Virus record (IMG/VR): IMGVR_UViG_2859720988_000003 | Reading direction: 5' to 3' (one strand) | From: a virus | Taxonomy: Duplodnaviria > Caudoviricetes | DNA: 64,000 bases | Shown: piece by piece, positions 3,402 to 16,846 of the stretch | How the letters are laid out: each line of letters begins with the position of its first letter | How positions within the stretch are numbered: position 1 is the first letter of the stretch | Translations under genes and position numbers: made by a program | Notes under the pieces: generated by a model | The model's database searches: none | Told to the model about the DNA's origin: nothing | Seen by the model: only the letters and a program-made list of their open reading frames with translations

Positions 3402-3477
3402 CGCCTTATCCCTTTTTATCTGCTTTCAGATTGTCAGAACTTGCTTACCTAAGCGGCTGTTGTGCCGTTGATGGGCT

Positions 3478-3532
3478 AAAGTTAATTTAAACTAACAATA
3501 AATTCAATCGTAAATTTAAATAAACTTAACAA
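3478..3532. promoter_or_regulatory. Leftward promoter/operator region (oL-like)
   Basis: Imperfect GTTA-N8-TAAC palindromes (AGTTAATTTAAACTAACA, ATTTAAATAAACTTAACA) resembling those between dicA and dicC. Confidence 0.5.
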
Positions 3533-3574
3533 TAAGGGCGAAATTATCGGTAAGAATTTGAAAAGTATGAATAT

Positions 3575-3967
3575 TTATTTGGCGAGTTTTTTTCTGGTTT
3601 GTAACAGCTCTTCAAAAAGTCGGTTTAACTCATCAACTTTAAGCCGAAGGTCTGTTAAGTGCCGCTCTTTTTCTGATTCAGGAAGAGACGCAAACAATTG
3701 AATTAGTTCAGCTTCTCTCTCATCAAGTTCAGGTGGGATCTTTACTGCGGGTGAGGGGGATTGATCTGTATCCCCGTATAAAATCCACGTTGGTGAGCAC
3801 TGTAATGCGGTACTCAGGGCAAATAGATTTTTGCCAGAAGGTGAACTGTCGTTGCTTTCCCATTGTGAAATGGTGACATGGGACACTTTCACCGCCTTTG
3901 CAAGGCTGCGTTGGGTTAGTTGCAGCTCATTTCGCCGCTCTCTGATGCGTTCACCGGGATTTTTCAT
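3575..3967 (-). CDS. dicA: DicA-like prophage repressor (HTH_3, no S24 peptidase domain)
   Basis: GERIRERR...TQRSLAKAVKVSHVTISQWE...GKNLFALS.ALQCSPTWIL closely follows E. coli Qin DicA. Confidence 0.88.
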   Translation of the reverse strand: MKNPGERIRERRNELQLTQRSLAKAVKVSHVTISQWESNDSSPSGKNLFALSTALQCSPTWILYGDTDQSPSPAVKIPPELDEREAELIQLFASLPESEKERHLTDLRLKVDELNRLFEELLQTRKKLAK

Positions 3968-4036
3968 AGTTAGGTAATTCTAAATTCTCTTGACTTAAAT
4001 TTCCTGAACAAATAACTTGTTAACTAAATCTAACAA
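3968..4036. promoter_or_regulatory. Divergent repressor/cro promoter-operator region (oR-like)
   Basis: Short intergenic gap with TTGACT and palindromes AGTTAGGTAATTCTAAAT and TGTTAACTAAATCTAACA. Confidence 0.6.
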
Positions 4037-4049
4037 CAGGAGAGGCGAC

Positions 4050-4247
4050 GTGTTAAAAAAAGATGCCATTCAATATTTCGGAACCAAGAGTGCTCTGGCA
4101 AAAGCTGCGGGGGTTAAGCCGCCATCAGTTTCTGCTTGGGGTGATTTAGTCCCAGAGAAAAGGGCCGTTCGATTAGAGAAAGCCTCTAATGGCGAATTGC
4201 ATTACGACCCTATTGATTATGACAAGCCTATAACACCAGCACAGTAA
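4050..4247 (+). CDS. dicC: DicC/Cro-like regulator
   Basis: GTG start after AGGAGAGG; MLKKDAIQYFGTKSALAKAAG...GDLVPEKRAVRLEKASNGELHYDP matches DicC. Confidence 0.85.
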   Translation: MLKKDAIQYFGTKSALAKAAGVKPPSVSAWGDLVPEKRAVRLEKASNGELHYDPIDYDKPITPAQ

Positions 4248-4741: not shown

Positions 4742-4981
4742 ATGGCTAAATTTTCCAGAGAACAAGTCGAGCAACAATTACGAGATGAACTGCAACGTGT
4801 CGGTTTTAGCGAGACAGTCGCCAGATCTGCTGCTATTCAAGGCGGCAAGCATTATACCGACACGCCTAATTCCACATTTTCCAGCGCGTTAGTTTGGGCT
4901 AAGACATATGCCAAACCCTATAAGCGGATGCGGGATAAGCCAGCACAGAAAGCGGCCAAAGCTAAAAAGCCGTGGAGATAA
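4742..4981 (+). CDS. Phage hypothetical protein
   Basis: 79-aa ORF with GAGG RBS. Confidence 0.65.
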   Translation: MAKFSREQVEQQLRDELQRVGFSETVARSAAIQGGKHYTDTPNSTFSSALVWAKTYAKPYKRMRDKPAQKAAKAKKPWR

Positions 4982-4985
4982 CCGC

Positions 4986-5174
4986 ATGTCTAAAAAGCTG
5001 ACATACCGAAATGGTTACCGCTACGGGAATATGCCAATCACTTCAAACATGGCGCGGGTGGTTTTACGGCAATTTGCCCGTGAGGCTATGCAAGGCCAGC
5101 GTAGAGCTTTCAATGCTCTTTTTAATATTAGTAACGCCAAATGTAACGTTAATAGCGTTACAGAAAAGCACTGA
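4986..5174 (+). CDS. Phage hypothetical protein
   Basis: ATG after GGAG, tightly packed in the operon. Confidence 0.5.
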   Translation: MSKKLTYRNGYRYGNMPITSNMARVVLRQFAREAMQGQRRAFNALFNISNAKCNVNSVTEKH

Positions 5175-5607
5175 ATCGGGGTATGTATGGCATCAAGTTG
5201 GATAAAAGTCGAAGTTATTACTCCAGACAAACCGGAGATATTCCAACTGGCTGAAATCCTGAATATCGACCCAGATACAGTGCTTGGGAAATTAATTCGT
5301 GTTTGGGTCTGGGCTGACCAACAGACTATCGACGGTAACGCAGATGGTAACGCCGTCAGCGTTACAAGAATTGGCATTGACCGTATCACTTTTATGTCTG
5401 GCTTTGCTGATGCACTGATAACAGTTGGATGGTTAAAACATGACGGCGGGAAAATGTACTTCCCTCACTTTGACCGCCATAACGGAAAAGGTTCTAAAAA
5501 ACGGGCGGTTACAAGTAGGCGCGTTACAGAATTCAGAGATTCCAAGCCAAAAAGTAACGCTAATAGTAACGCTGGCAGCGTTACACCACCGGATAAAAAA
5601 GCGTTAC
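5131..5607. repeat. Iteron array / probable phage replication origin
   Basis: Three 32-bp modules GTAACG-N6-GTAACG-N6-GCGTTACA at 5131, 5335 and 5554, plus extra GCGTTAC at 5521 and 5601, in and just before the initiator gene. Confidence 0.75.
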
Positions 5608-6221
5608 CAGAGGAAGAGTTAGAGGAAGAGAAAGATCTAAAAGATAAACCCCTATTGTCCCATGGCGAAAAAAACGCCACAGGACCGAACGAGGATTATC
5701 CGCCTTCGAATCCCGAACCAGAACCCCAACAGGCTGGGAGCAAAAACAAGCGGCATGAGTACCCGCCAGAATTCGAAGCAGCTTGGCTGGAATACCCACG
5801 CAGACCGGGAAGCCCTGACAAGTACGGTGCTCTCAAGGCTTGGAATGCCCGACTACGGGACGGCGTAACGGTTGATGCGATGTTGGAGGGGGTGAAACGC
5901 TATGCAGCGTTCGTCAAGGCGACGGGCAAGGCTGGCACGGAATTTATCAAACAGGCTAAAACATTTTTTGGACCGTCAAAACATTTTGACGATGAATGGC
6001 AAGTGAGCACAGGAGAAAACCATGTGGAATTCAGATTCAACCAGAGCGACCCAAGGCCGTACTCTGAGCAATATCTCAGTTGGGAACAGCAACAGCAAGG
6101 AGTCACCGGCATGGCGCCTATGGGATCTCATGATCAAAATCTACGGGAACCGCTGGACTGCGAAGAATGGCAATCGACCATCGGACCTGTGGGAGTGCCA
6201 GATTGGGGCAATGACCAGTGA
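5187..6221 (+). CDS. Phage replication initiator (O-like)
   Basis: WIKVEVITPDKPEIFQLAEIL N-terminus; FEAAWLEYPRR...FIKQAKTFFGP C-terminal domain; contains iterons. Confidence 0.85.
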   Translation: MASSWIKVEVITPDKPEIFQLAEILNIDPDTVLGKLIRVWVWADQQTIDGNADGNAVSVTRIGIDRITFMSGFADALITVGWLKHDGGKMYFPHFDRHNGKGSKKRAVTSRRVTEFRDSKPKSNANSNAGSVTPPDKKALPEEELEEEKDLKDKPLLSHGEKNATGPNEDYPPSNPEPEPQQAGSKNKRHEYPPEFEAAWLEYPRRPGSPDKYGALKAWNARLRDGVTVDAMLEGVKRYAAFVKATGKAGTEFIKQAKTFFGPSKHFDDEWQVSTGENHVEFRFNQSDPRPYSEQYLSWEQQQQGVTGMAPMGSHDQNLREPLDCEEWQSTIGPVGVPDWGNDQ

Positions 6222-6657
6222 CCAACTCCAGCGGGTTTGCACCGCATGCATGAAACGCTGTGAATCTGGTAACTCTTGGCCGCCAGATTTTGCCGAGTTT
6301 GTTTCTCTTGTGGCGGAGCATGGTGGTGGTCATTTGGGTTTAACTGTGGTGGATGTTCTCGCCGAGCTTAAGCGCTACCGGAATGAATTTTATAAATACA
6401 GTTGTGCTGAGGAATTCAACTGGCGCCACCCGGTTTTATATCAGATTTGCGTAGACCTTAAGCGCCTTGGAATCGAAAAAAGGCTCACTGATACCGGACT
6501 AGAAACACAGGCAGGTATCGAGTTAGCCAAGTGGGAAAAACGTGCCGCCAGTGGTGTACCAATTCCCCCAATTCGCCGCCAATTGAAAACACCTGACCGA
6601 CCATCAGGATTAACCCCGGCACAGCAACTAGCCGCAGGAAACCGATACGTTAAATAA
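6022..6657 (+). CDS. Replication protein P-like (helicase loader); start uncertain
   Basis: LWDLMIKIYGNRWTAKNG...WPPDFAEF...W.HPVLY; overlaps the 3' end of the initiator. Confidence 0.7.
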   Translation: MWNSDSTRATQGRTLSNISVGNSNSKESPAWRLWDLMIKIYGNRWTAKNGNRPSDLWECQIGAMTSDQLQRVCTACMKRCESGNSWPPDFAEFVSLVAEHGGGHLGLTVVDVLAELKRYRNEFYKYSCAEEFNWRHPVLYQICVDLKRLGIEKRLTDTGLETQAGIELAKWEKRAASGVPIPPIRRQLKTPDRPSGLTPAQQLAAGNRYVK

Positions 6658-6671
6658 GCGAGGTATGACCA

Positions 6672-7172
6672 ATGGAAATTAATAACTGTAATAATTTTAT
6701 CAATGATAATCGGCCAGTGATTGACGACAAATGTGATCATTCATCCTGCATCATTGATGCCTGGGGAATGGCGGCTCGCGCCAGATGCCGAGCGCCTTAC
6801 ACGCCACCGGTCAAGCCGAAAAAAGTGGTAATTCCTACATCGAAAGCAACGAAATCAGAGAAGCTTAAAGCGGCCAAAAAATCTAACACATCATCAGCAC
6901 TGCGGCTAAAAGCCAGTGAGCTGGTGGCGGTGATGTTGGGCAAAACATTGACCTATACCGGCATTCTTGCCGCGCTTGATAAATCCTATCCGGATCACGG
7001 CATTACGCTGCGCATGTTGCAGATGCGTATGATTGGCTTGATGAAATCGCCACATGTTGACATTACTCGTCATGAAAAACCGGTAGCGGAATTTACCTTG
7101 CACAGTGTCAGTGAGCGTTTTTATGCGGATTCGATACTCAGGGCCAAAACAAAAGGTGGGGGGGCTCAATGA
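6672..7172 (+). CDS. Phage hypothetical protein
   Basis: 166-aa ORF with GAGG RBS, coupled to the next gene. Confidence 0.65.
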   Translation: MEINNCNNFINDNRPVIDDKCDHSSCIIDAWGMAARARCRAPYTPPVKPKKVVIPTSKATKSEKLKAAKKSNTSSALRLKASELVAVMLGKTLTYTGILAALDKSYPDHGITLRMLQMRMIGLMKSPHVDITRHEKPVAEFTLHSVSERFYADSILRAKTKGGGAQ

Positions 7173-9229
7173 TCTGGCCTACGGAAGTAAATCAATGTGC
7201 CTCATCGGTTATACCGGTACATGCTTTGAGTCCCGACCACCAGCAACAGCTTTTGCTCCAAATGAATCAGATGTTTTTAAATCGAGATAATCCGCAGCAT
7301 ATCCAACAGACAGCCCATGCATGGGCGCGGCGTAAAGAAATCACGGTAGCGCGGCCTGATTTACAGGATGGTCTGGTGGTTGTGGGGTTCGCTGGTGGCG
7401 GTGGCAGCTGTGAGGGCATCAAGCAAGCATTAGGCTATGAGCCACACATCGCGATGAACCATAACCCTGTGGCGATGGCGATGCATGCCATCAATCACCC
7501 ACGTACGTTGCATTACCCTGAGGATATTTTCAGTGTTGACCCGCTCATCTCAACGGGCGGTTTGCCGGTATTGCTGGGTTGGTTCAGTCCTGATTGCCGT
7601 CACTTCTCCAAAGCCAAGGGCGGCACGCCAGTTAAGAAAGAAATTCGTGGTTTAGCCTGGGTGGTGTTGCGCTGGGCGCTGGCAGTACGTCCACGCTTTC
7701 TGATGTTGGAGAACGTCGAAGAGTTTCGCGGCTGGGGGCCATTATTGACGGATAGCGAAGGCAATCACCGTCCTGATCCCGCGCGTAAAGGTGAAACGTT
7801 CAAGGCATTTATTGGCATGCTGGGTACCGGTATTGATGCGAATCATCCAGCGCTGGCCGAAGTGTGTAAGTTTTTGAAGATAGATATCAATGGCTCCGAG
7901 GCAGAGAGGCTAACTTCAGGTTTAGGTTATAACGTGGATCATCGGGAGCTTAAAGCCTGTGATTACGGAACCCCCACTATCAGAAAGCGGTTGTTTGTGG
8001 TTGGGCGTTGTGACGGTGAGCCGGTTGTATGGCCAGAGCCAAGCCACGGCGCACCAAACTCTGCAGATGTGCTTTCTGGCATGTTGCAACCTTGGCGAAC
8101 GGCGGCGGAGTGTATCGATTGGAGCCAGCCAACACGCTCTATTTTCGGTCGCAAGAAAGATTTGGCTGATAATACCTTGCGGCGCATCGTCAAAGGGCTG
8201 CAACGCTTTGTTATCGATAACCCTGATCCGTTTATTGTGCGATTGGGCCAAACCGGTTTCGGTGGCGATCGTCTGCAGTATCCAATAGACCAACCGCTAA
8301 CCACCATCACCAGCAAGGCCGAGCATTTATTGCTGGAGCCGTATGCGGTGAAGTGCAACCACACCAGCACCAAAACCAAATATGATTGCTTCCGTGGGCA
8401 GTCATTACGTGATCCGTTACAGACCATCACCAGAACTCACGGTTTTGCTGTCGCTGCGCCGGTAGTTGTGCGTCAGTTCGGTAACAGTACGGCAAATGAT
8501 ATCAATATGCCGTTGGGTACCGTGACGGCGGGTGGGGGCGGTAAAAGCCAGTTAACCTGCGCTCATCTTGCCAAGCATTATGGCGGCAATTATACCGGTG
8601 CAGGCATCAATATTAACCAGCCATTGCACACCATCACCACGGTTGATCACCACGCGCTTTGTACATCTCACCTGGTGCAATTGCGCGGCACATGCCGCGA
8701 TGGTAAACCGATCAATGAACCGGTACCGACCTTAACCGCCGGCGGTAATCATGTCGGGATAATAAACGCCTTTCTGACCAAGTATTACGGTACCGGTGGC
8801 TCAGTAGATCTCTCAGAACCAATACACGCGGTGACGACCAAAGAGCGCTTTGGTTTGGTGGAAAACAATTTTGATGTTGAACCTCTGACCGACGAGCAAC
8901 GCTATAACGCCTGGAACTGTGCGCGACTGGTGGATCATTTCAGCGATTTACCGGACGACTGGCATTTATTCCCTGCACCACGACCACAATATCTATCGAT
9001 GGGCGAATACATCATCGTAGATATTTGCATGCGCATGTTGATTGCCCGTGAACTCTACAACGCCAGCGGGTTCCCGCCAGATTACATTATTGACCGGGAT
9101 ATTGATGGCACCCTCTGGCCCAAATCTGAACAGGTGGCAAGATGTGGTAACGCGGTGCCGCCACCCTTTGCCGAGGCATTGGTAAGGGCCAATATGCCAG
9201 AGCTGTGTATCTGGAGGATGGCGGCATAA
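7169..9229 (+). CDS. DNA (cytosine-5) methyltransferase, phage type with long variable region
   Basis: Motifs FAGGGG, SPDCRHFS, LENVEEF, YGTPTIRKRLF, C-terminal CGNAVPP; internal PL.TIT repeats. Confidence 0.92.
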   Translation: MIWPTEVNQCASSVIPVHALSPDHQQQLLLQMNQMFLNRDNPQHIQQTAHAWARRKEITVARPDLQDGLVVVGFAGGGGSCEGIKQALGYEPHIAMNHNPVAMAMHAINHPRTLHYPEDIFSVDPLISTGGLPVLLGWFSPDCRHFSKAKGGTPVKKEIRGLAWVVLRWALAVRPRFLMLENVEEFRGWGPLLTDSEGNHRPDPARKGETFKAFIGMLGTGIDANHPALAEVCKFLKIDINGSEAERLTSGLGYNVDHRELKACDYGTPTIRKRLFVVGRCDGEPVVWPEPSHGAPNSADVLSGMLQPWRTAAECIDWSQPTRSIFGRKKDLADNTLRRIVKGLQRFVIDNPDPFIVRLGQTGFGGDRLQYPIDQPLTTITSKAEHLLLEPYAVKCNHTSTKTKYDCFRGQSLRDPLQTITRTHGFAVAAPVVVRQFGNSTANDINMPLGTVTAGGGGKSQLTCAHLAKHYGGNYTGAGININQPLHTITTVDHHALCTSHLVQLRGTCRDGKPINEPVPTLTAGGNHVGIINAFLTKYYGTGGSVDLSEPIHAVTTKERFGLVENNFDVEPLTDEQRYNAWNCARLVDHFSDLPDDWHLFPAPRPQYLSMGEYIIVDICMRMLIARELYNASGFPPDYIIDRDIDGTLWPKSEQVARCGNAVPPPFAEALVRANMPELCIWRMAA

Positions 9230-9376: not shown

Positions 9377-9559
9377 ATGATTACTATAGAAAACTTGATT
9401 CAACATTTACCAACGGATGGCCGAACTGTAATTCATTGTGAAAAGGGTAAGATAATAAGTATTGCACAATTAAGACCGGATCAGTTTATAGCAACGCTGC
9501 CAGCCTTTATCGAGATGGCAGAAAGAGCGGGGTATATCATTACAATCCCTGATATTTAA
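9377..9559 (+). CDS. Small hypothetical protein
   Basis: 60-aa ORF with AAGGTG RBS. Confidence 0.55.
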   Translation: MITIENLIQHLPTDGRTVIHCEKGKIISIAQLRPDQFIATLPAFIEMAERAGYIITIPDI

Positions 9560-9632
9560 CGGTATAATAACCAAGTCAGCCTGAACAACTGACAACCTAA
9601 GTTGTTGTTGTGTCATCACCCTTGGGGGCAAG

Positions 9633-10226
9633 ATGGCACAACTTTCATTTATCAAATCTGGCAATGAGACACTGACACCGGCCACGCCCGATGTTAGGGA
9701 TTTTCTGCATTACAAAGTCAAGCTGGGGGCTATTCTCACCGCTGATTTTAAGCAGGTTCGAAACCCGAAGTTTCACCGCAAATATTTTTCCTTACTGAAT
9801 CTGGGTTTTGATTACTGGACACCCTCCGGTGGCACCATATCGCCTGAAGAAAAGAAGCTGGTGCGTGGTTATGTAAACTATTTGGCAGAATATGCCGGTC
9901 ATAGCGATACGCTGGAAGAATTAGCCCGTCAGTACCTCGATACCCTGGCAGAACAGCGGGCCGACCGTGTAACCCTGCTTAAATCCTTTGATGCTTTTCG
10001 CCGCTGGACAACCATTCAAGCTGGTTATTACGCCATTATTCAAATGCCGGATGGCTCGCAATTTAAAGAGCCTAAATCGATCTCTTTTGCCTCGATGGAC
10101 GATACCGAATTCTCCGAACTCTACAAAGCCACTCTTGATGTTCTCTGGCAATTCATTTTAAACAAAACCTTTAGTACACCAGCAGCTGCAGAAAATGCTG
10201 CCAGCCAGTTGTTAAGTTATGCGTAG
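9633..10226 (+). CDS. DUF1367 family protein (nin region)
   Basis: RNPKFHRKYFSLLNLGFDYWTP.GG...KSISFASMD. Confidence 0.85.
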   Translation: MAQLSFIKSGNETLTPATPDVRDFLHYKVKLGAILTADFKQVRNPKFHRKYFSLLNLGFDYWTPSGGTISPEEKKLVRGYVNYLAEYAGHSDTLEELARQYLDTLAEQRADRVTLLKSFDAFRRWTTIQAGYYAIIQMPDGSQFKEPKSISFASMDDTEFSELYKATLDVLWQFILNKTFSTPAAAENAASQLLSYA

Positions 10227-10234
10227 GGGGATTT

Positions 10235-10519
10235 ATGGCTAATTTACGCAAAGAGGCAAGGGGCCGTGAGTGTCAAATAAGAATCCCCGGCATATGCAAT
10301 GGCAATTCCGAAACTGTGGTTCTGGCTCATTACCGATTGGCGGGTACCTGTGGCACCGCCATTAAACCACCTGATGAGCAGGGGGCTTGGGGATGCGGTG
10401 CATGTCACGACGAGTGTGACCGGCGCACCCGCTTAATTGATAGTGACACTGCCCGTCTGTATCACGCCGAGGGCGTTATGCGCACCCAGTATATTTTACG
10501 AAAGGAAGGGAAGTTATGA
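10235..10519 (+). CDS. DUF1364/YbcO family protein
   Basis: LRKEARGRECQIRIPGICNGNSETVVLAH...C..CHD. Confidence 0.85.
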   Translation: MANLRKEARGRECQIRIPGICNGNSETVVLAHYRLAGTCGTAIKPPDEQGAWGCGACHDECDRRTRLIDSDTARLYHAEGVMRTQYILRKEGKL

Positions 10520-10560
10520 GAGCCGCACCGCAAAGCCTGCCGTCAGAGCAGGAAAAACCA

Positions 10561-10917
10561 ATGCTGGATATTCAATATCTATTGGAGCTTTGGGGAGCAT
10601 GGGCCGCCAATGATAATAGCCAGGTAGATTGGCAACCTATTGCAGCAGGCTTTAAGGGACTGCTCCCCTATACCAATAAATCACGGCCACAGTGCTGTGA
10701 TGATGACGGCATTATGATTGATCGCTGTGTGGCACGATTGAAAAAGTATAAACCAGAAGAGTATGAACTGGTGATTTTGCACTATGTATACGGTGTTTCG
10801 CTGCGAATGATAGCTAAAAGGCGCAAGTGCTCAGATGGGACAATCAGGAAAGAGATGCAAACGGCGATTGGTTTCATCTATGGGGTTTTAGCAATGATAT
10901 TGAATGGACTAAAATAA
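10561..10917 (+). CDS. Late antiterminator Q
   Basis: DIQYLLELWGAWAA...AGFKGLLP...CCDDDG...CSDGTIRK; upstream of the lysis cassette. Confidence 0.85.
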   Translation: MLDIQYLLELWGAWAANDNSQVDWQPIAAGFKGLLPYTNKSRPQCCDDDGIMIDRCVARLKKYKPEEYELVILHYVYGVSLRMIAKRRKCSDGTIRKEMQTAIGFIYGVLAMILNGLK

Positions 10918-12135
10918 TTTAACTATAACTCCGATGGTGCCTATACAAACGGGCACCCAAGCTATTGATATTAAAAAGTCCAAAACTCGCCTGCAAAAAA
11001 CCACATTTTTAATTAATTCTGATTTAGCTTCGATTAATCTTATTTTAAGATCTGATTTTTCATCTTGTATTTTATTTTCAATTGATAAAAAAACAATATC
11101 TTTTGCGTGAGAAATTCTATCTAATTGCTTCTTCTGTGAAATAAGAACAAGAGAGATTATAATGCTTGTTAAAATCAATCCAGAGAAAGTAATAAATGTC
11201 TCTATTTTCCCACTAAACTGATAAATAGCAATTGAACCTACCAAAGAAATAGGAATAGCTAAAGCCTTATTAGCGATTTCCGCAGTGATTTTGGATATTT
11301 TATCAGCATATTCGATCTCCGTTTCAGCAATTTCTTTTCTGGCTTTTTGAAACGAAAATGCTGACATATATACAGCGAGATTATTACTATATAAGTTACT
11401 GATTAACTCCCAGTTTTTAACAATTCCTTTGAAATTGGTTTCAGATGAGTTGATATATTCTATGAGCGTATTTCTAAACGTATTTATTTTTTCATCATAA
11501 TGAAGATCATTACCTGGACTAATATTAATCAATGAATTGATTAGTGTTATATTTATCTCATTATAACCCAACATTTCCTCACTCAATAATGTTTCAATGA
11601 TCGCCGACGATGACTTAGACTCAGAGTGGAGAACAAATACAAGTCTATAAAAGTTAGAGCGACCACTGTTTTTCATATCATGAAAATGTGATAACTTTGA
11701 AAGAGCTATAATTAGCCCACATATAGCCTCAATTTTTTTTACTGATTGTGGCTTGTTGGGGTCTTTTGAAAAATAGTTCAAATCTACAATGTAATACTGT
11801 TCTGGAACTTCTCCCCGCATTAAACTATTTATTTTTATGAAATCTTTCATTGATGGGTAAAAACGTTCAGCACTGGACTGGCTAACTAAAAAATCAAAAT
11901 TTAATAATTCCCCATTATCAGGAATATCTTCAATATCGTTAATTGTCTCCCCATCAATTTCTAATTCTGTAAAGCTTCCGTAAGAAAAATTAGTACAATG
12001 AATGGACTTAACTAAAACCTGTAGCTCTGGAGTATATTTTATAGATGCAGAAAAAACTTCCCCGTCAAATTCCGGAAAGTTGGCTAGTCTATATAATTCA
12101 ACTACACTGCTTAAATTATTCACTGTCTTTCTCAT
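10909..12135 (-). CDS. Hypothetical 408-aa protein with C-terminal transmembrane helices (moron gene 2)
   Basis: AT-rich ORF; hydrophobic segments ALAIPISLVGSIAIY, FITFSGLILTSIIISLVLI, LISIAWVPVCIGTIGVIV; overlaps the upstream gene by 20 nt. Confidence 0.8.
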   Translation of the reverse strand: MRKTVNNLSSVVELYRLANFPEFDGEVFSASIKYTPELQVLVKSIHCTNFSYGSFTELEIDGETINDIEDIPDNGELLNFDFLVSQSSAERFYPSMKDFIKINSLMRGEVPEQYYIVDLNYFSKDPNKPQSVKKIEAICGLIIALSKLSHFHDMKNSGRSNFYRLVFVLHSESKSSSAIIETLLSEEMLGYNEINITLINSLINISPGNDLHYDEKINTFRNTLIEYINSSETNFKGIVKNWELISNLYSNNLAVYMSAFSFQKARKEIAETEIEYADKISKITAEIANKALAIPISLVGSIAIYQFSGKIETFITFSGLILTSIIISLVLISQKKQLDRISHAKDIVFLSIENKIQDEKSDLKIRLIEAKSELIKNVVFCRRVLDFLISIAWVPVCIGTIGVIVKLF

Positions 12136-13270
12136 TGTTACTGATTATTTTTTTTCTTTCTTTCAGAGCTGACCTTATTTTTGTTTTTGCCTCTTCAGGG
12201 AGATTATTAAAACTAAGGTTTCCCGTTTCATCATTATAATATATTTTTGCATCTGCATTATCTCCTAGGAGCTCTTTGTCAAAATTGAAACTATATAGTG
12301 GAGTCTTATATATTACCTTTCTAAGTTTATCTAGAGAAGCCCTGTTTACAATAAAATCTGTTGGTATGCCAACACCTTCGCTATTGAGATAATGCATCAT
12401 ATCTTTCAATAGTTCATCTCTTTTATCATCATCCAGAATTGACATTTGTTCAAAGGCAATAGCTTCTACATCTGGTAAACTTGCAGGGGATTCGGAGTCG
12501 AATTGTTTTTCTAGATATTTTATTATTTTATTTCTGAATTCATCAGCATGGGGAAGCAATTCTGCATGTTTCTTGAAAAACCTCCTTACTTCATTGGGAA
12601 GCTTTCTTGTTGCTCCAGCAGAAGCTATTCCTTTGTCACAACCAAGTGCAGCTATAAAATATGCAGATGCAGATTGCCCATTCGTTTTACTTATAAAACT
12701 TAAATAGTTTAATTCATTGCGCTTAACTTCATCAGCATTAAAGTGTTCATAATAAAGATGAAAATTAATTCTCGCTGCTTGATTTATGTAGTTCAGCTCT
12801 AGATGCATCATTTCTTCAGGATTAAGATTTTCACTAATAGTCACACCATTTTTTTTCTTAATCATGGTGACTAAAAGATACCTAAGATTTAGATATATAT
12901 AATCAGTAAAAACAACATAACCACCAGAGGACCAAATTTGGGATTTAGCCTCATGGTACATCTGTTTCATGATCTGTTTTGACAGATTAATGAAATCTAC
13001 TGTGCTGGATGGTGTGACAGAGTAGTAGGCATTAAAAAGATCTGGAACTGGTCCTCTTTCAGTAGGTTCGGTCTTAAAGACTCCATGATGTGCTAAGTTA
13101 CCACGCGAACCATACAGTTCAACAACTCCATCGACTAGTTGTTGAACAATTATATTGGATTTGTCTAATTCAGTATCTCGAAGATTATAACGCTTTGAGT
13201 GATCGAATTCTTTTTGCGCTTCCTTGATTAACTCATGAACAATGACGTGTTTGATAGATATTTTGCTCAT
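12116..13270 (-). CDS. Nucleoid-associated protein, YejK/NdpA (NA37) family (moron gene 1)
   Basis: HVIVHELIKE, GGYVVFTDY, INQAARINF, YLSFI, SAYFIAALGC motifs typical of NA37. Confidence 0.8.
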   Translation of the reverse strand: MSKISIKHVIVHELIKEAQKEFDHSKRYNLRDTELDKSNIIVQQLVDGVVELYGSRGNLAHHGVFKTEPTERGPVPDLFNAYYSVTPSSTVDFINLSKQIMKQMYHEAKSQIWSSGGYVVFTDYIYLNLRYLLVTMIKKKNGVTISENLNPEEMMHLELNYINQAARINFHLYYEHFNADEVKRNELNYLSFISKTNGQSASAYFIAALGCDKGIASAGATRKLPNEVRRFFKKHAELLPHADEFRNKIIKYLEKQFDSESPASLPDVEAIAFEQMSILDDDKRDELLKDMMHYLNSEGVGIPTDFIVNRASLDKLRKVIYKTPLYSFNFDKELLGDNADAKIYYNDETGNLSFNNLPEEAKTKIRSALKERKKIISNNEKDSE

Positions 13271-13324
13271 TTTTTATACTATCCATTGTTTGCAAACGGC
13301 TGAATATTACAGAGAGTAATAAAA

Positions 13325-13375
13325 TATTAACGCGTACGCAAAAATGATTGTACTGTGATAAGAGTGGTTACTTAG
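13325..13375 (+). promoter_or_regulatory. Probable late promoter pR'/qut
   Basis: ACGCGTACGCAAAAA motif plus a TACTGT -10-like box just upstream of a terminator and the lysis genes. Confidence 0.5.
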
Positions 13376-13394
13376 TCACGTAGCTTACACAATC

Positions 13395-13430
13395 AAAAAA
13401 ACCTCGCTTTTAGCGGGGTTTTGTCGTTTT
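13395..13430 (+). terminator. tR'-like terminator
   Basis: AAAACCTCGC-TTTTA-GCGGGGTTTT followed by a T-rich run. Confidence 0.7.
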
Positions 13431-13498
13431 TGCGCCCAAATAATCTGCAATAACTATGATTATCATTTGATTGTGGCGTGTTTTCTTTTCGCTTCACA

Positions 13499-13543
13499 CC
13501 CAACCCAACCCAACCCAACCCAACCCAACCCAACCCAACCCAA
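13499..13543 (+). repeat. Simple sequence repeat (CCCAA)9
   Basis: Nine perfect tandem pentamers ending 20 nt before the holin ATG. Confidence 0.95.
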
Positions 13544-13563
13544 CACATCAGGGAGGGGAGACT

Positions 13564-13779
13564 ATGAAAATGAGCAATATAACAACAGCGGTCTCCTATA
13601 CCGTGTCAGGTGGTAGCTTCATTTTTTGGGTTAAAGAGCTGATAGCTGGATTCACACCTGATGAGTGGACGGTTATCGGCGTACTTGGGTCTTTGTTTTT
13701 TATGGCCCTGACATTTTTGCTCAATGCAGGCGTGAAAATTTGGGATAGGCGGCATGGTTATAAACCGGATGGTGAGTGA
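13564..13779 (+). CDS. Class II holin/pinholin with dual start (Met-Lys-Met)
   Basis: GGAGGGGAG RBS, ATG AAA ATG, two TM segments, charged C-terminus. Confidence 0.85.
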   Translation: MKMSNITTAVSYTVSGGSFIFWVKELIAGFTPDEWTVIGVLGSLFFMALTFLLNAGVKIWDRRHGYKPDGE

Positions 13780-14309
13780 TGGCCTCGACAAAAAGCAAAT
13801 TAAGCGCGGCTGTTCTGGCTCTGGTTATGGTTGCAGCACCGGCCACAATAATTCTGGATCAGTTATTGGATGAGAAAGAGGGTAATCGGCTTTCATCTTA
13901 TCCAGATGGAAAGGGGATTTGGACTGTTTGCCGTGGTGCCACAATGGTTGATGACAAACCGGTAGTGAAAGGGATGAAGCTGTCAGCGGATAAGTGTGCT
14001 GCGGTTAATCAGCTGGAGGCTGACAAGGCCATCAGCTGGGTAAAGAAAAATATCCGGGTACCGCTGACTGAACCACAGATTGCCGGTATCGCTTCGTTTT
14101 GCCCCTATAACATTGGCCCGAGTAAATGTTTCACTTCTACGTTCTATCGAAAACTCAATGCTGGCGACCGTAGAGGCGCATGTGCTGAAATCAAACGCTG
14201 GGTATATGACGGCGGTAAGGATTGCAATATTCGCTCAAATAACTGTTACGGGCAGATAGAACGCCGCGCTCAAGAAAGCGAGCTTACATGCTGGGGGCTG
14301 GATGAATAA
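13776..14309 (+). CDS. SAR endolysin (GH24 lysozyme)
   Basis: N-terminal hydrophobic SAR segment, then EGNRLSSYPDGKGIWTVCRG (E-x8-D-x5-T). Confidence 0.92.
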   Translation: MMASTKSKLSAAVLALVMVAAPATIILDQLLDEKEGNRLSSYPDGKGIWTVCRGATMVDDKPVVKGMKLSADKCAAVNQLEADKAISWVKKNIRVPLTEPQIAGIASFCPYNIGPSKCFTSTFYRKLNAGDRRGACAEIKRWVYDGGKDCNIRSNNCYGQIERRAQESELTCWGLDE

Positions 14310-14634
14310 GGCCATTGGATTAGTCATTGTTGTGCTGGTGGTTATTGTGTCAGCTCTATTATTTAACAGTTACCGTCTCTCAAATAAGGTCGAAAAAACG
14401 GAAGCGGAGCTGGTAGCCGAGAAAAACACAAACACGGTTCTGGGAAACATTATTGATGCATATCAGGTGAATGATTCTGCAAATAGAGCTGCGACAATCA
14501 GACAACTCGAAAACGAGAGGAAGTTACGTAATGAAAGTGAAGATCGGCTCAAGCGGTTTCTGGTGGCGTCGTCAGATGATAAGTGTGCTATTCAGCGCAT
14601 GCCTGACGCTAGCATTAACATCATGCGCGAATAA
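14302..14634 (+). CDS. Rz-like inner-membrane spanin (DUF2570-like)
   Basis: N-terminal TM plus coiled coil, after the endolysin. Confidence 0.8.
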   Translation: MNKAIGLVIVVLVVIVSALLFNSYRLSNKVEKTEAELVAEKNTNTVLGNIIDAYQVNDSANRAATIRQLENERKLRNESEDRLKRFLVASSDDKCAIQRMPDASINIMRE

Positions 14635-14848
14635 AGCGGCTTCACGTCCGCCAGCTAGTTGCCCCGTATTGTTACCGCCAGAATCAGCATTAACTGAATG
14701 CGAAGTGCCGGAGTTCGTCGGGACTACTTGGGGCGATAGTGGTCTGTATGCATTGGCTTTGAAACGCGAGCTGCGGATCTGTAAAGCGCGGCTTGATGAA
14801 GTAATCGAGTGGAAAGGAAATGTAATTATAAAAAAACATTATGGCTAG
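14576..14848 (+). CDS. Rz1-like outer-membrane lipoprotein spanin
   Basis: Lipobox LTSC, Pro-rich, overlaps Rz in another frame. Confidence 0.8.
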   Translation: MISVLFSACLTLALTSCANKAASRPPASCPVLLPPESALTECEVPEFVGTTWGDSGLYALALKRELRICKARLDEVIEWKGNVIIKKHYG

Positions 14849-14986
14849 TTGGACGAATCTACAAGTAAAGTTAATAAAAAAATTTAAGTGATTAATTCAT
14901 TAATATGCATAAAATGATGGGTAATTAGCTGTTGGGATGGTGTAAGTCTGAACTAACATACATTATGGTATTTTTATGGGGAAATC

Positions 14987-15406
14987 ATGACAACTAGTGA
15001 ATGGATAGCCTTGGCTGGTACGGTTGGAACTTGGGGCGCTGCTGCAGCTACTTTATTTGCTGCTTTGATGGCTATGAGAGCATTAAATGCATGGAAAAAT
15101 CAGGAAATATATAGTCTAGTAAAATCATATAAAACAGCAGTTATAAGATATAGAAATACCCTTAAAAATATGCCACTTCAGTTTGAAGGATATGTAATTC
15201 ATGATGAAAAATTCATCAATTTTGAATTGGCTTTTGATCATGTTTATGAATGTTTCGCATTAATTAATGAAGGTGATTTGAAAATTGAAATTCAAAAGAA
15301 ATTTCTACCTTTTTACGAAACACATCTAAATTATATAAAAAGATCAAAATCAAGAGATGATGTATTCCTTTCAATAAAAGATATATTAATTATGAATGTT
15401 GATTAA
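14987..15406 (+). CDS. AT-rich moron, N-terminally anchored membrane protein
   Basis: WIALAGTVGTWGAAAATLFAALMA hydrophobic helix; own intergenic upstream region. Confidence 0.7.
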   Translation: MTTSEWIALAGTVGTWGAAAATLFAALMAMRALNAWKNQEIYSLVKSYKTAVIRYRNTLKNMPLQFEGYVIHDEKFINFELAFDHVYECFALINEGDLKIEIQKKFLPFYETHLNYIKRSKSRDDVFLSIKDILIMNVD

Positions 15407-15540
15407 TGGAGTTTAATCTTTGCAGTGTAATGTTAATAACAATGACATGAGCAAAGCGATTCAGTGTTTGCCATAACTTGTTTATATATAAATGTCATCA
15501 CATAGCAGCTTTACGAGGCTGTTATGTAATGCGCAAGCAA

Positions 15541-15597: not shown

Positions 15598-15725
15598 TAG
15601 GAAGGTGGGCGACCGCTGGTAGTTGGAGCTACTAACGGCCATTCATACCCACAGGATCGGTCATGAGTACGAACCAAGGCCCACTTGCTCTCGAGAGCAG
15701 GGTCATAATAGTTGGAACATGCAAA

Positions 15726-16235
15726 ATGACCATAGTAAAAAATCAGAATAAATTGGAAATAGTCTACAAATTGCCCAATTCGTTGATTGTTTACGCAAAA
15801 AATGCCAGAACCCACTCAGCAGAGCAGGTAGATGAAGTTGCAGCGAGTATTAAACAGTTCGGTTGGACAAACCCGATCCTTATTGATGAACGGGGTGAGG
15901 TAATTGCGGGTCATGGTCGTTTATTGGCAGCGGAACAGTTGGGTATTGAACAAGTTCCTACCATCACATTATCTGGGTTAACGGAGTCTGAGAAAAAAGC
16001 CTATCGCCTTGCTGACAATAAATTGCCGCTGAATGCCGGATGGGATCAGGATCTCTTAACTTTGGAATTAAGTGATTTATTGGCAGAAAATTTTGACCTT
16101 GGTCTAACCGGATTTTCGTCTGATGAAATCGATCAAATGTTGAATGTCGATTTTCTGCCTGGTAACGAAGATGATCAGGGAAAGCTCGATCACCTAGACG
16201 CCAAACTCTGCCCACACTGCGGGGGTGTTTTATGA
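15726..16235 (+). CDS. ParB/Srx N-terminal domain protein
   Basis: YAKNARTHS.EQV..ASIKQFGWTNPILID...IAGHGRLLAA...YRLADNKL; C-terminal CPHCG. Confidence 0.88.
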   Translation: MTIVKNQNKLEIVYKLPNSLIVYAKNARTHSAEQVDEVAASIKQFGWTNPILIDERGEVIAGHGRLLAAEQLGIEQVPTITLSGLTESEKKAYRLADNKLPLNAGWDQDLLTLELSDLLAENFDLGLTGFSSDEIDQMLNVDFLPGNEDDQGKLDHLDAKLCPHCGGVL

Positions 16236-16846
16236 CAACACTCACGGTGGATTGGGCGACTCATCAGGCGGCCAGCTTTGCCTGCCTTAACTGGCATTAT
16301 GCTAAAGCGGTTCCGGTCGGAAAATTAGTAAAAGTGGGTGCGTGGGAAGATGGGAAATTTATTGGCGTCGTTATTTTTAGCCGCGGCGCTAATAACCATA
16401 TTGGGCAGCCTTACAGTTTGCAGCAGGATCAAGTTTGCGAACTGACCCGCGTAGCATTACGTCAGCATATATCCCCAGTTAGTCAGATATTGGCGAAAGC
16501 GATTAAATTTCTTGCTGATGTTTGCCCTGGTCTGCGGCTAATCGTCTCCTATGCAGATAAAGACCAAAATCATCATGGCGGGATTTATCAGGCCACCAAT
16601 TGGATATATGAAGGGTTATTTGGGGTCGGAACGGTGGGTGCATTCATCATCAAGGGTAAGAAAACCCACCCGCGCAGTGTTTCTGCCAAGGGGGTAAAGC
16701 AAAACCTTGAATCAATCCGCCAACATTTAGATCCCAACGCCCAAGAGTTCAAAACGTCAGGAAAGCATAAATACCTGATGCCACTTGACAAGAAAATGAA
16801 AAAAATCCTGATTTCACGTCATAAACCCTATCCCAAGAGGGCATGA
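16232..16846 (+). CDS. mom: Mom-family adenine modification enzyme (GNAT fold)
   Basis: WHY...GVVIF...ELTRVAL...LIVSYADKDQNHHGGIYQATNWIYEG. Confidence 0.78.
   Translation: MTTLTVDWATHQAASFACLNWHYAKAVPVGKLVKVGAWEDGKFIGVVIFSRGANNHIGQPYSLQQDQVCELTRVALRQHISPVSQILAKAIKFLADVCPGLRLIVSYADKDQNHHGGIYQATNWIYEGLFGVGTVGAFIIKGKKTHPRSVSAKGVKQNLESIRQHLDPNAQEFKTSGKHKYLMPLDKKMKKILISRHKPYPKRA

Follow-up and report, generated by a model that had tools for sequence, protein, structure and literature searches.

The window analyzed here, a 64,000-nucleotide (nt) stretch of the Caudoviricetes virus record IMGVR_UViG_2859720988_000003, carries two adjacent minus-strand genes, here called A and B, between the antiterminator gene Q and the holin gene (Table 1). 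In the list of open reading frames (ORFs), the two overlap by 20 nt; gene B may instead start at 12123, at an in-frame GTG that is preceded by GAGAAAG and aligns with the N terminus of most homologs, and it would then encode 404 amino acids (aa) and overlap gene A by 8 nt. The guanine-plus-cytosine (GC) fraction of the pair is 0.285-0.365 in 400-nt windows from 10800 to 13399, compared with 0.43-0.52 across 9400-10999 and 0.46-0.49 across 13400-14799. Gene B and Q are convergent, with 9 nt shared by their 3′ ends, and the holin side also codes for a phage lysozyme and an Rz-like ORF. Upstream of the locus lie genes for a CI-like repressor, YdaT, a lambda-P-like protein, DUF1367, and YbcO, which confirm that the element is a lambdoid prophage. 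A preliminary description of the sequence had recorded two AT-rich, overlapping genes antisense to the phage and next to Q, and this layout is borne out. As argued below, the pair appears to be a divergent member of the class of two-gene systems represented by DS-1 and type II PANGU, with a putative anti-phage function.

Gene A carries the NA37/YejK motifs that had been read from its sequence: residues 10-360 are a full-length match to the Pfam family NA37 (PF04245; E 5.3e-49), and the protein also matches phrog_3767, "nucleoid associated protein" (E 6e-85), and, in a sequence search, the YejK entry 9be2_A of the PDB (E 1.4e-13). Judged by its sequence, it is not the housekeeping yejK, because it reaches 131.7 bits on the NCBIfam YejK equivalog model (NF001557), for which the cut-off is 341, and because the genome holds a separate, true yejK elsewhere in the chromosome (G000:C1:1168946-1169890), to which gene A is 23% identical. 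On PF04245, that chromosomal copy scores 372.7 bits and gene A 167.7. Gene A thus resembles housekeeping YejK/NdpA (NF001557; 9be2) in having NA37 over the whole domain and differs from it in being always paired with B and in lying on mobile DNA.

Gene B has no Pfam family, and it matches phrog_5023 end to end (E 4.7e-88). Its residues 1-290 have a net charge of -12 and an isoelectric point (pI) of 5.0, with a net charge of -9 in residues 61-90 alone, while residues 291-408 (118 residues) have a net charge of +4 and a pI of 9.3. Kyte-Doolittle windows of at least 1.6 occur at 311-335 and 383-408, and a weaker hydrophobic stretch lies at about 291-309. An AlphaFold2 model made with 26 homologs (predicted local distance difference test [pLDDT] 87.2; predicted template modeling score [pTM] 0.63) places an alpha/beta domain from residue 1 to about 205, helices over 213-291 that include a long helix at 242-291, and terminal helices at 293-306, 310-355, 362-391, and 394-407. 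Both analyses make the earlier picture of a soluble region of ~290 aa followed by about three transmembrane (TM) helices a fair one. Across the family, the sequence that precedes the first strongly hydrophobic window (at residues 255-311) is acidic in 29/29 B homologs (net charge -3 to -19; pI 4.5-6.3).

Structural searches were made with the whole model and with the N-terminal 215 residues, which were also folded alone (pLDDT 81.1). For this N-terminal part, there was no significant fold match in the PDB (best VIA Z 4.1; best Foldseek E 0.49). With the whole model, Foldseek returned nothing at E ≤0.001, the top entry being CorA 8tmc_D (E 0.19, probability 0.63), and the wide VIA search gave matches with Z of 10-15, all on the C-terminal helical residues 255-408, to designed bundles, spectrin repeats, CorA (Z 12.1, 124 aligned residues, root-mean-square deviation 3.1), and the ClyA pore (Z 11.0). 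Such Z values are within the range common for helical bundles, and no CorA or ClyA fold was assigned; in the model, the CorA-like arrangement of a soluble domain, a long stalk helix, and terminal TM helices may be taken as a lead only. YbgF coiled-coil hits of the B profile in a PDB sequence search (E about 0.01) were discounted as noise from helical composition.

Both genes are homologous to the components of DS-1, a validated Escherichia coli anti-phage pair from the DefensePredictor study (Science 2026; PMC13092281, cited here from the portions of text and tables considered). Its main text counts "a YejK nucleoid-associated domain" among the domains newly validated in defense; DS-1, working id D390, spans 220602-222994 of an E. 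coli contig and consists of WP_000355468.1 (391 aa, NA37 at 42-382) and then WP_000150292.1 (404 aa). Table S7 of that paper gives, as the negative logarithm of the efficiency of plating, -log(EOP), 7.6 for Bas1, 2.7 for Bas26, 1.7 for Bas3, 1.7 for T3, 1.0 for T5, 0.92 for T7, and -0.15 for SECphi27. On the NCBIfam models built for this system, gene A reaches 96.6 bits (E 1.5e-27; cut-off 330) with NF053868, DS1_1_antiphage ("nucleoid-associated anti-phage protein"), and gene B 99.7 bits (E 1.8e-28; cut-off 315) with NF053869, DS1_2_antiphage. BLASTP aligns B with the DS-1B equivalog at locus L016 at 25% identity over 271 aa (E 2e-15) and A with a DS-1A equivalog at 29% identity over 127 aa (E 2e-9).

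The window pair shares with DS-1 the homology of both genes and the order of a nucleoid-associated protein (NAP) gene followed by a membrane-protein gene. Their sizes are alike (391+404 aa in DS-1, 384+408 aa in the window), and the pair has the combination of NA37 with a membrane protein of ~400 aa; according to the DS-1 material considered, DS-1B and gene B are also alike in being acidic at the N terminus and in having hydrophobic helices at the C terminus, and the genes are tightly adjacent in each case, with a 2-nt gap in DS-1 and an overlap in the window. The two systems differ in that their alignments are partial, at about 25-29% identity, and in that DS-1A has an N-terminal extension before NA37 (with a weak NinF-like match at 3-26 in the HHpred table of the paper), whereas gene A, in which NA37 starts at residue 10, has none. 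Two E. coli proteins among the DefensePredictor prediction entries, WP_016159279.1 (408 aa) and WP_120130707.1 (382 aa, NA37 at 10-362), are absent from the tested-system tables considered (PMC13092281). They were not seen among the cluster members listed for our families (40 of 309 and 40 of 76, with 15 accessions per cluster), and a tie to the window clade would be tentative.

The layout of the pair is also that of type II PANGU, which, in the preprint text considered (bioRxiv 10.64898/2026.04.06.716658), consists of a YejK-like NAP, Pag2A, and a transmembrane effector, Pag2B, with both genes required. There, the E. coli system gives protection of the abortive-infection type, T4 escapes through mutations in denA (EndoII), Pag2A-GFP departs from the nucleoid on infection, and Pag2A binds the N-terminal domain of Pag2B with a dissociation constant (KD) of 19 nM (bioRxiv 10.64898/2026.04.06.716658). 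In that text, the TM domain of Pag2B is C-terminal, and its N-terminal domain, named "DMK," is acidic and is said to be a mimic of DNA; how Pag2A activates Pag2B "remains to be determined" in the words of the preprint (bioRxiv 10.64898/2026.04.06.716658). PANGU operons are defined in that text by a YejK-like NAP in a bicistronic arrangement with genes <40 bp apart (bioRxiv 10.64898/2026.04.06.716658), and with its PF04245 match (E 5.3e-49) and 20-nt gene overlap the window pair falls within this definition. As far as the description in the preprint text allows the two to be likened, they share a YejK-like NAP and a partner with an acidic N terminus and a C-terminal TM region, and both families are linked to defense genes and mobile elements; the window pair lies in a prophage, and prophages are unmentioned in the text considered.

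We then considered how far the two genes are inherited together. A word-seeded search with B returned 58 proteins at E ≤1e-3, nearly all of 400-416 aa and from Enterobacterales; the closest, in other assemblies, is 97% identical, and the next, in Ewingella and Serratia, are 70-74% identical. An exhaustive B profile search of 1.84 billion entries gave 951 cluster representatives at E ≤1e-3, 497 at 1e-10, and 187 at 1e-30. With the pair as query, Megablast gave no match among complete E. coli genomes or PLSDB plasmids; among INPHARED phages, it gave one record, Klebsiella phage P7641, in which Q is followed by B and A in antisense and then by the holin gene, i.e., the same slot as in the window. 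When one genome per species was scanned, an A homolog ended within a few tens of bases of the B start at 11/11 loci. A DS1_2 model search of 401 genomes of the window's GTDB order identified 21 genomes with a match, of which 3 exceeded the cut-off, and 0/29 other genomes of the window's own family had one. In 19/20 of the other matched genomes, a full or near-full YejK/DS1_1-like ORF lay directly upstream of B; in the 20th, a 168-aa C-terminal fragment of NA37 (L020:2762-3268) stands directly upstream of an intact B homolog. NA37-like sequence is thus found directly upstream of B at 31/31 other loci (11 + 20), the outcome of the neighborhood check that the preliminary description had proposed.

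Two further observations concern shortened copies. At L030:2658-3452, the gene A ORF has just 264 aa next to an intact B homolog, and the short A genes of L020 and L030 may be frameshifted sensors. Shigella flexneri CP182557.1 holds, at 4814-7140 (L008), a degraded second copy besides an intact one (L005) in the same genome; in the degraded copy, A is broken into four tblastn pieces, the B ORF has 262 aa, and the adjacent DUF968 and KilA-N genes are truncated too.

Excluding L008 (degraded), L017 (B cut by the contig end), and L020 and L030 (short A), 29 pairs were available for the analysis of co-divergence. Pairwise identities of A and B were strongly correlated (Pearson 0.957, Spearman 0.70), and 0/2000 permutations of partner labels reached this Pearson value, the maximum being 0.33. 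Since related rows share history, the correlation shows that the two genes are inherited as a unit and is not a proof of physical co-evolution. The maximum-likelihood tree of B puts the window in a group of 10 rows (support 98/97) with Ewingella, phage P7641, Shigella, Pantoea, Xenorhabdus, Proteus, and Providencia; adding Rheinheimera, Arsukibacterium, and one further genome gives a 13-row clade with support of 100/100.

Pfam scans of 104 flanking ORFs at 11 loci from named genomes described the surroundings of the pair. Nine of the 11 (L004-L012) lie within prophage late or nin genes, and Q is convergent right after B in six (L005, L006, L007, L010, L011, and L012). The two most distant loci (L013 and L014, 28-30% identity) adjoin methylase and specificity genes of type I restriction-modification (RM), in the same neighborhood as integrase, RadC, WYL, or ProQ genes, and are in a defense-island or integrative-element setting. 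At the Xenorhabdus hominickii locus (L012), the minus strand at 3435-4157 carries a gene for a Tad2-like (Thoeris anti-defense, PF11195) and DUF7823 protein about 700 nt from the NAP gene, so that defense and anti-defense cargo adjoin in the same prophage late region.

Together, these results support the notion that the pair is a prophage-carried, two-gene anti-phage module of the DS-1/type II PANGU kind, expressed in the lysogen and acting by abortive infection, a reading that we consider likely. Its basis here is gene structure, family membership, strict pairing, co-divergence, the prophage and defense-island context, and the architecture of B. In such a module, the pair would be transcribed leftward from its own promoter in the lysogen, and the gene A NAP, as its family membership suggests, would coat chromosomal double-stranded DNA. 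The gene B product is predicted to be anchored in the inner membrane through its C-terminal helices and to keep the acidic N-terminal domain in the cytoplasm. By analogy with Pag2A and Pag2B, degradation of the host chromosome by a superinfecting phage would free the NAP, which would bind the acidic, DNA-mimicking N terminus of B, and NAP-bound B would then turn on membrane damage and stop the infected cell from growing before it yields progeny. For the trigger, the A-B contact, and the abortive outcome, the source is the PANGU preprint, and for protection it is DS-1, all being extended to the window pair by inference. The guess made in the preliminary description, of a nucleic-acid sensor coupled to an abortive-infection membrane effector in a moron slot expressed by the lysogen, would accordingly seem to have been right in kind.

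Several results weigh against this reading. The DS-1 model scores of A and B are about 30% of the equivalog cut-offs, true DS-1 equivalogs in other genomes scoring 420-436 bits on the A model and 312-384 bits on the B model. Likewise, 6/6 members of the window clade that were checked score 82-103 bits on DS1_2, and the DS-1 equivalogs L015, L016, and L018 form a separate group (97/93) across the midpoint root of the B tree; because of this separate clade and these scores, sequence places the window pair in a sister subfamily, not in DS-1 proper. Placement in PANGU "Cluster 2" would rest on description, not on the authors' hidden Markov models or the PANGU-Ecu sequences. The PADLOC check for a named system did not bear one out: in PADLOC-DB v2.0.0, gene A has no match, and the match of gene B to PDC-S35 (E 0.022) is non-significant and was put down to chance. 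The acidity of the B N terminus is moderate (pI 5.0) and comes without a significant PDB fold match, so that the label of "DNA mimic" is borrowed from the PANGU preprint. The promoter scan called no minus-strand promoter upstream of gene A, where weak candidates can be picked out by eye. Finally, the degraded copy at L008 and the short A genes at L020 and L030 show that the module is dispensable.

We next weighed other explanations of the pair. It might serve the phage itself, with the NAP compacting or silencing phage or host DNA and the membrane protein tuning lysis timing or superinfection exclusion, and no abortive infection taking place. This would suit a pair that is fixed in the slot between Q and the holin gene, as it is in the window, phage P7641, and six of the 11 loci from named genomes, and that is convergent with Q, overlaps it, and stands beside the lysis cassette. 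However, L013, L014, and most of the wider family lie outside prophage lysis regions, many loci adjoin housekeeping genes, and the pair runs antisense to the late operon, as lysogen-expressed cargo usually does; moreover, homologous DS-1, cloned by itself, protects E. coli in the DefensePredictor data considered (PMC13092281). We regard a phage-benefit role as improbable.

A toxin-antitoxin-like addiction module, in which B is a membrane toxin restrained by A and the prophage is stabilized without any sensing of phage, appears more improbable still: an overlapping two-gene operon with a small membrane protein and the strict co-inheritance of A and B are what it would predict, but a broken A stands beside B at L020 and L030 without obvious loss of B, and, for other homologs, the PANGU preprint text considered states that no construct with a single gene was toxic and that the system does not belong to the classical toxin-antitoxin systems (bioRxiv 10.64898/2026.04.06.716658). 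Just as poorly placed is the idea of a decaying or inactive relic of a former defense pair, which can point to the degraded copies in relatives (L008, L020, and L030) and to the sparseness of near relatives (0/29 in the window's own family), since both ORFs are intact, full length, and aligned end to end with their homologs, the invariant alignment columns are retained (67 in A and 40 in B), and a 97%-identical B occurs in other assemblies.

Returning to the anti-phage module, we examined how the pair could be regulated. The preliminary description had placed the insertion between Q and pR′; Q and the holin gene do flank the pair, while pR′ itself is only inferred, from a promoter-like plus-strand site at 13251-13280 (TTGATA-18-TATACT, 10 of 12 positions), and the region has 10 promoter-like sites against a shuffle mean of 12.8, so that there is no excess over shuffles. 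This site and the hairpin at 13398-13422, which is tR′-like and possibly bidirectional, resemble a late promoter with a short terminated leader that would face the pair's own, putative promoter. The terminator scan of the region found no terminator-like site after gene B on the minus strand, nor after Q on the plus strand before 13398, so the transcript of the pair would run antisense into Q, and the pair would be crossed in antisense by early or late phage transcription. Such opposed transcription could make the defense lysogeny-specific. A bolder proposal, which we hold to be doubtful, is that the prophage-locked clade (the window, phage P7641, and the Enterobacterales prophages) differs in function as a subtype of its own and is regulated in part through its fixed position, with defense on in the lysogen and turned off by transcriptional collision at the onset of the prophage's own early and late transcription. 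If true, the collision would spare the prophage from setting off its own abortive-infection module. Equally doubtful is a further idea, that B forms a CorA- or ClyA-like oligomeric pore opened by NAP binding; if true, such a pore would supply a first mechanism for the membrane effector in systems of this class. Three RNA runs with the same species label were mapped on 9600-15500; each placed 13-26 reads there, every one in the endolysin region (90-99% likeness) and 0 on the pair; the sequenced strain is thus evidently without this prophage, and the runs are uninformative on expression of the pair.

Table 1. Features of the A-B locus in the window
Feature	Position	Strand	Match or detail
Antiterminator Q gene, Phage_antitermQ	10516..10917	+	PF06530, E 2e-47
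Gene B, acidic soluble N-terminal region and 2-3 C-terminal TM helices, 408 aa, presumed effector (DS-1B/Pag2B-like)	10909..12135	-	NF053869, phrog_5023
Gene A, YejK/NA37-family nucleoid-associated protein, 384 aa, presumed sensor (DS-1A/Pag2A-like)	12116..13270	-	PF04245
Intergenic region, 127 nt, putative site of the pair's own promoter (-) and probably of the Q-dependent late promoter (+)	13271..13397		
Terminator-like hairpin, 11-pair stem with 5 GC pairs, then GTCGTTTTTG; A-run before, T-run after	13398..13432 (hairpin 13398-13422)	+	
Holin gene, P21-type	13564..13779	+	PF04971, E 3.6e-17, residues 35-94 of a 102-aa ORF

The surrounding DNA holds several other features. Translation of the holin probably begins at the ATG at 13564 and not at the TTG listed farther upstream, at 13471, with an M-K-M motif that we take to be a dual start like that of lambda S; the ribosome-binding site GGGAGGGGAG stands before ATGAAAATG at this ATG. 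Between the tR′-like hairpin and this ribosome-binding site lies a perfect pentanucleotide microsatellite (ACCCA/CCCAA, 9.4 copies, 100% matches) at 13498-13544, which gives rise to spurious "GLGWV" and "PNPTQ" repeat ORFs, was not found in 34 other loci compared, and may make the late-operon leader prone to slippage. After the Rz region, a second AT-rich cargo ORF at 14987-15406 on the plus strand (139 aa, GC about 0.30) has an N-terminal hydrophobic stretch and matches phrog_6169 (unknown function; E 5.9e-13), with no significant match in Pfam, NCBIfam, or PADLOC. Just past the lysis cassette, at 15663-16846 on the plus strand, genes for a ParB_N-like protein (190 aa) and then a Mom-family protein (PF25680, E 1.3e-44) look like a DNA-modification (anti-restriction) module. 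The plus-strand gene at 7169-9229 encodes a 686-aa protein whose sole match, to the C-5 cytosine DNA-methylase family PF00145, is short (residues 251-284, E 2.1e-14), and it may be a large, atypical phage methyltransferase.

The preliminary description had also compared the pair with Kiwa and taken it for an undescribed system. Kiwa (the membrane protein KwaA with KwaB) is like the window pair in having two genes, one for a membrane protein and one for a DNA-associated soluble protein; no Kiwa match to the pair was found in the PADLOC models, and no homology is indicated. In Kiwa, sensing falls to the membrane protein and the effector role to the soluble one, the reverse of the logic proposed for the window pair. 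With a homologous system already described, there is no need for the Kiwa analogy, and the view of the pair as undescribed has to be given up, both genes being homologous to DS-1 components and the layout being that of type II PANGU. An exact match to a described system had been named in advance as grounds for rejecting that view; the pair matches one in kind, but not in sequence. By itself, the pair opens no new question.

What the pair adds is an intact, divergent member, about 25-29% identical to DS-1, to a class that was described only in 2025-2026. One well-supported clade of this class travels as cargo of the Q-to-lysis slot of lambdoid prophages in several families of Enterobacterales, and the finding has value for annotation, as neither the current NCBIfam equivalog models nor PADLOC v2 calls this clade. 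It would also provide a comparison point for the conservation of the proposed trigger, a NAP released from the damaged nucleoid, and of the membrane-effector mechanism.

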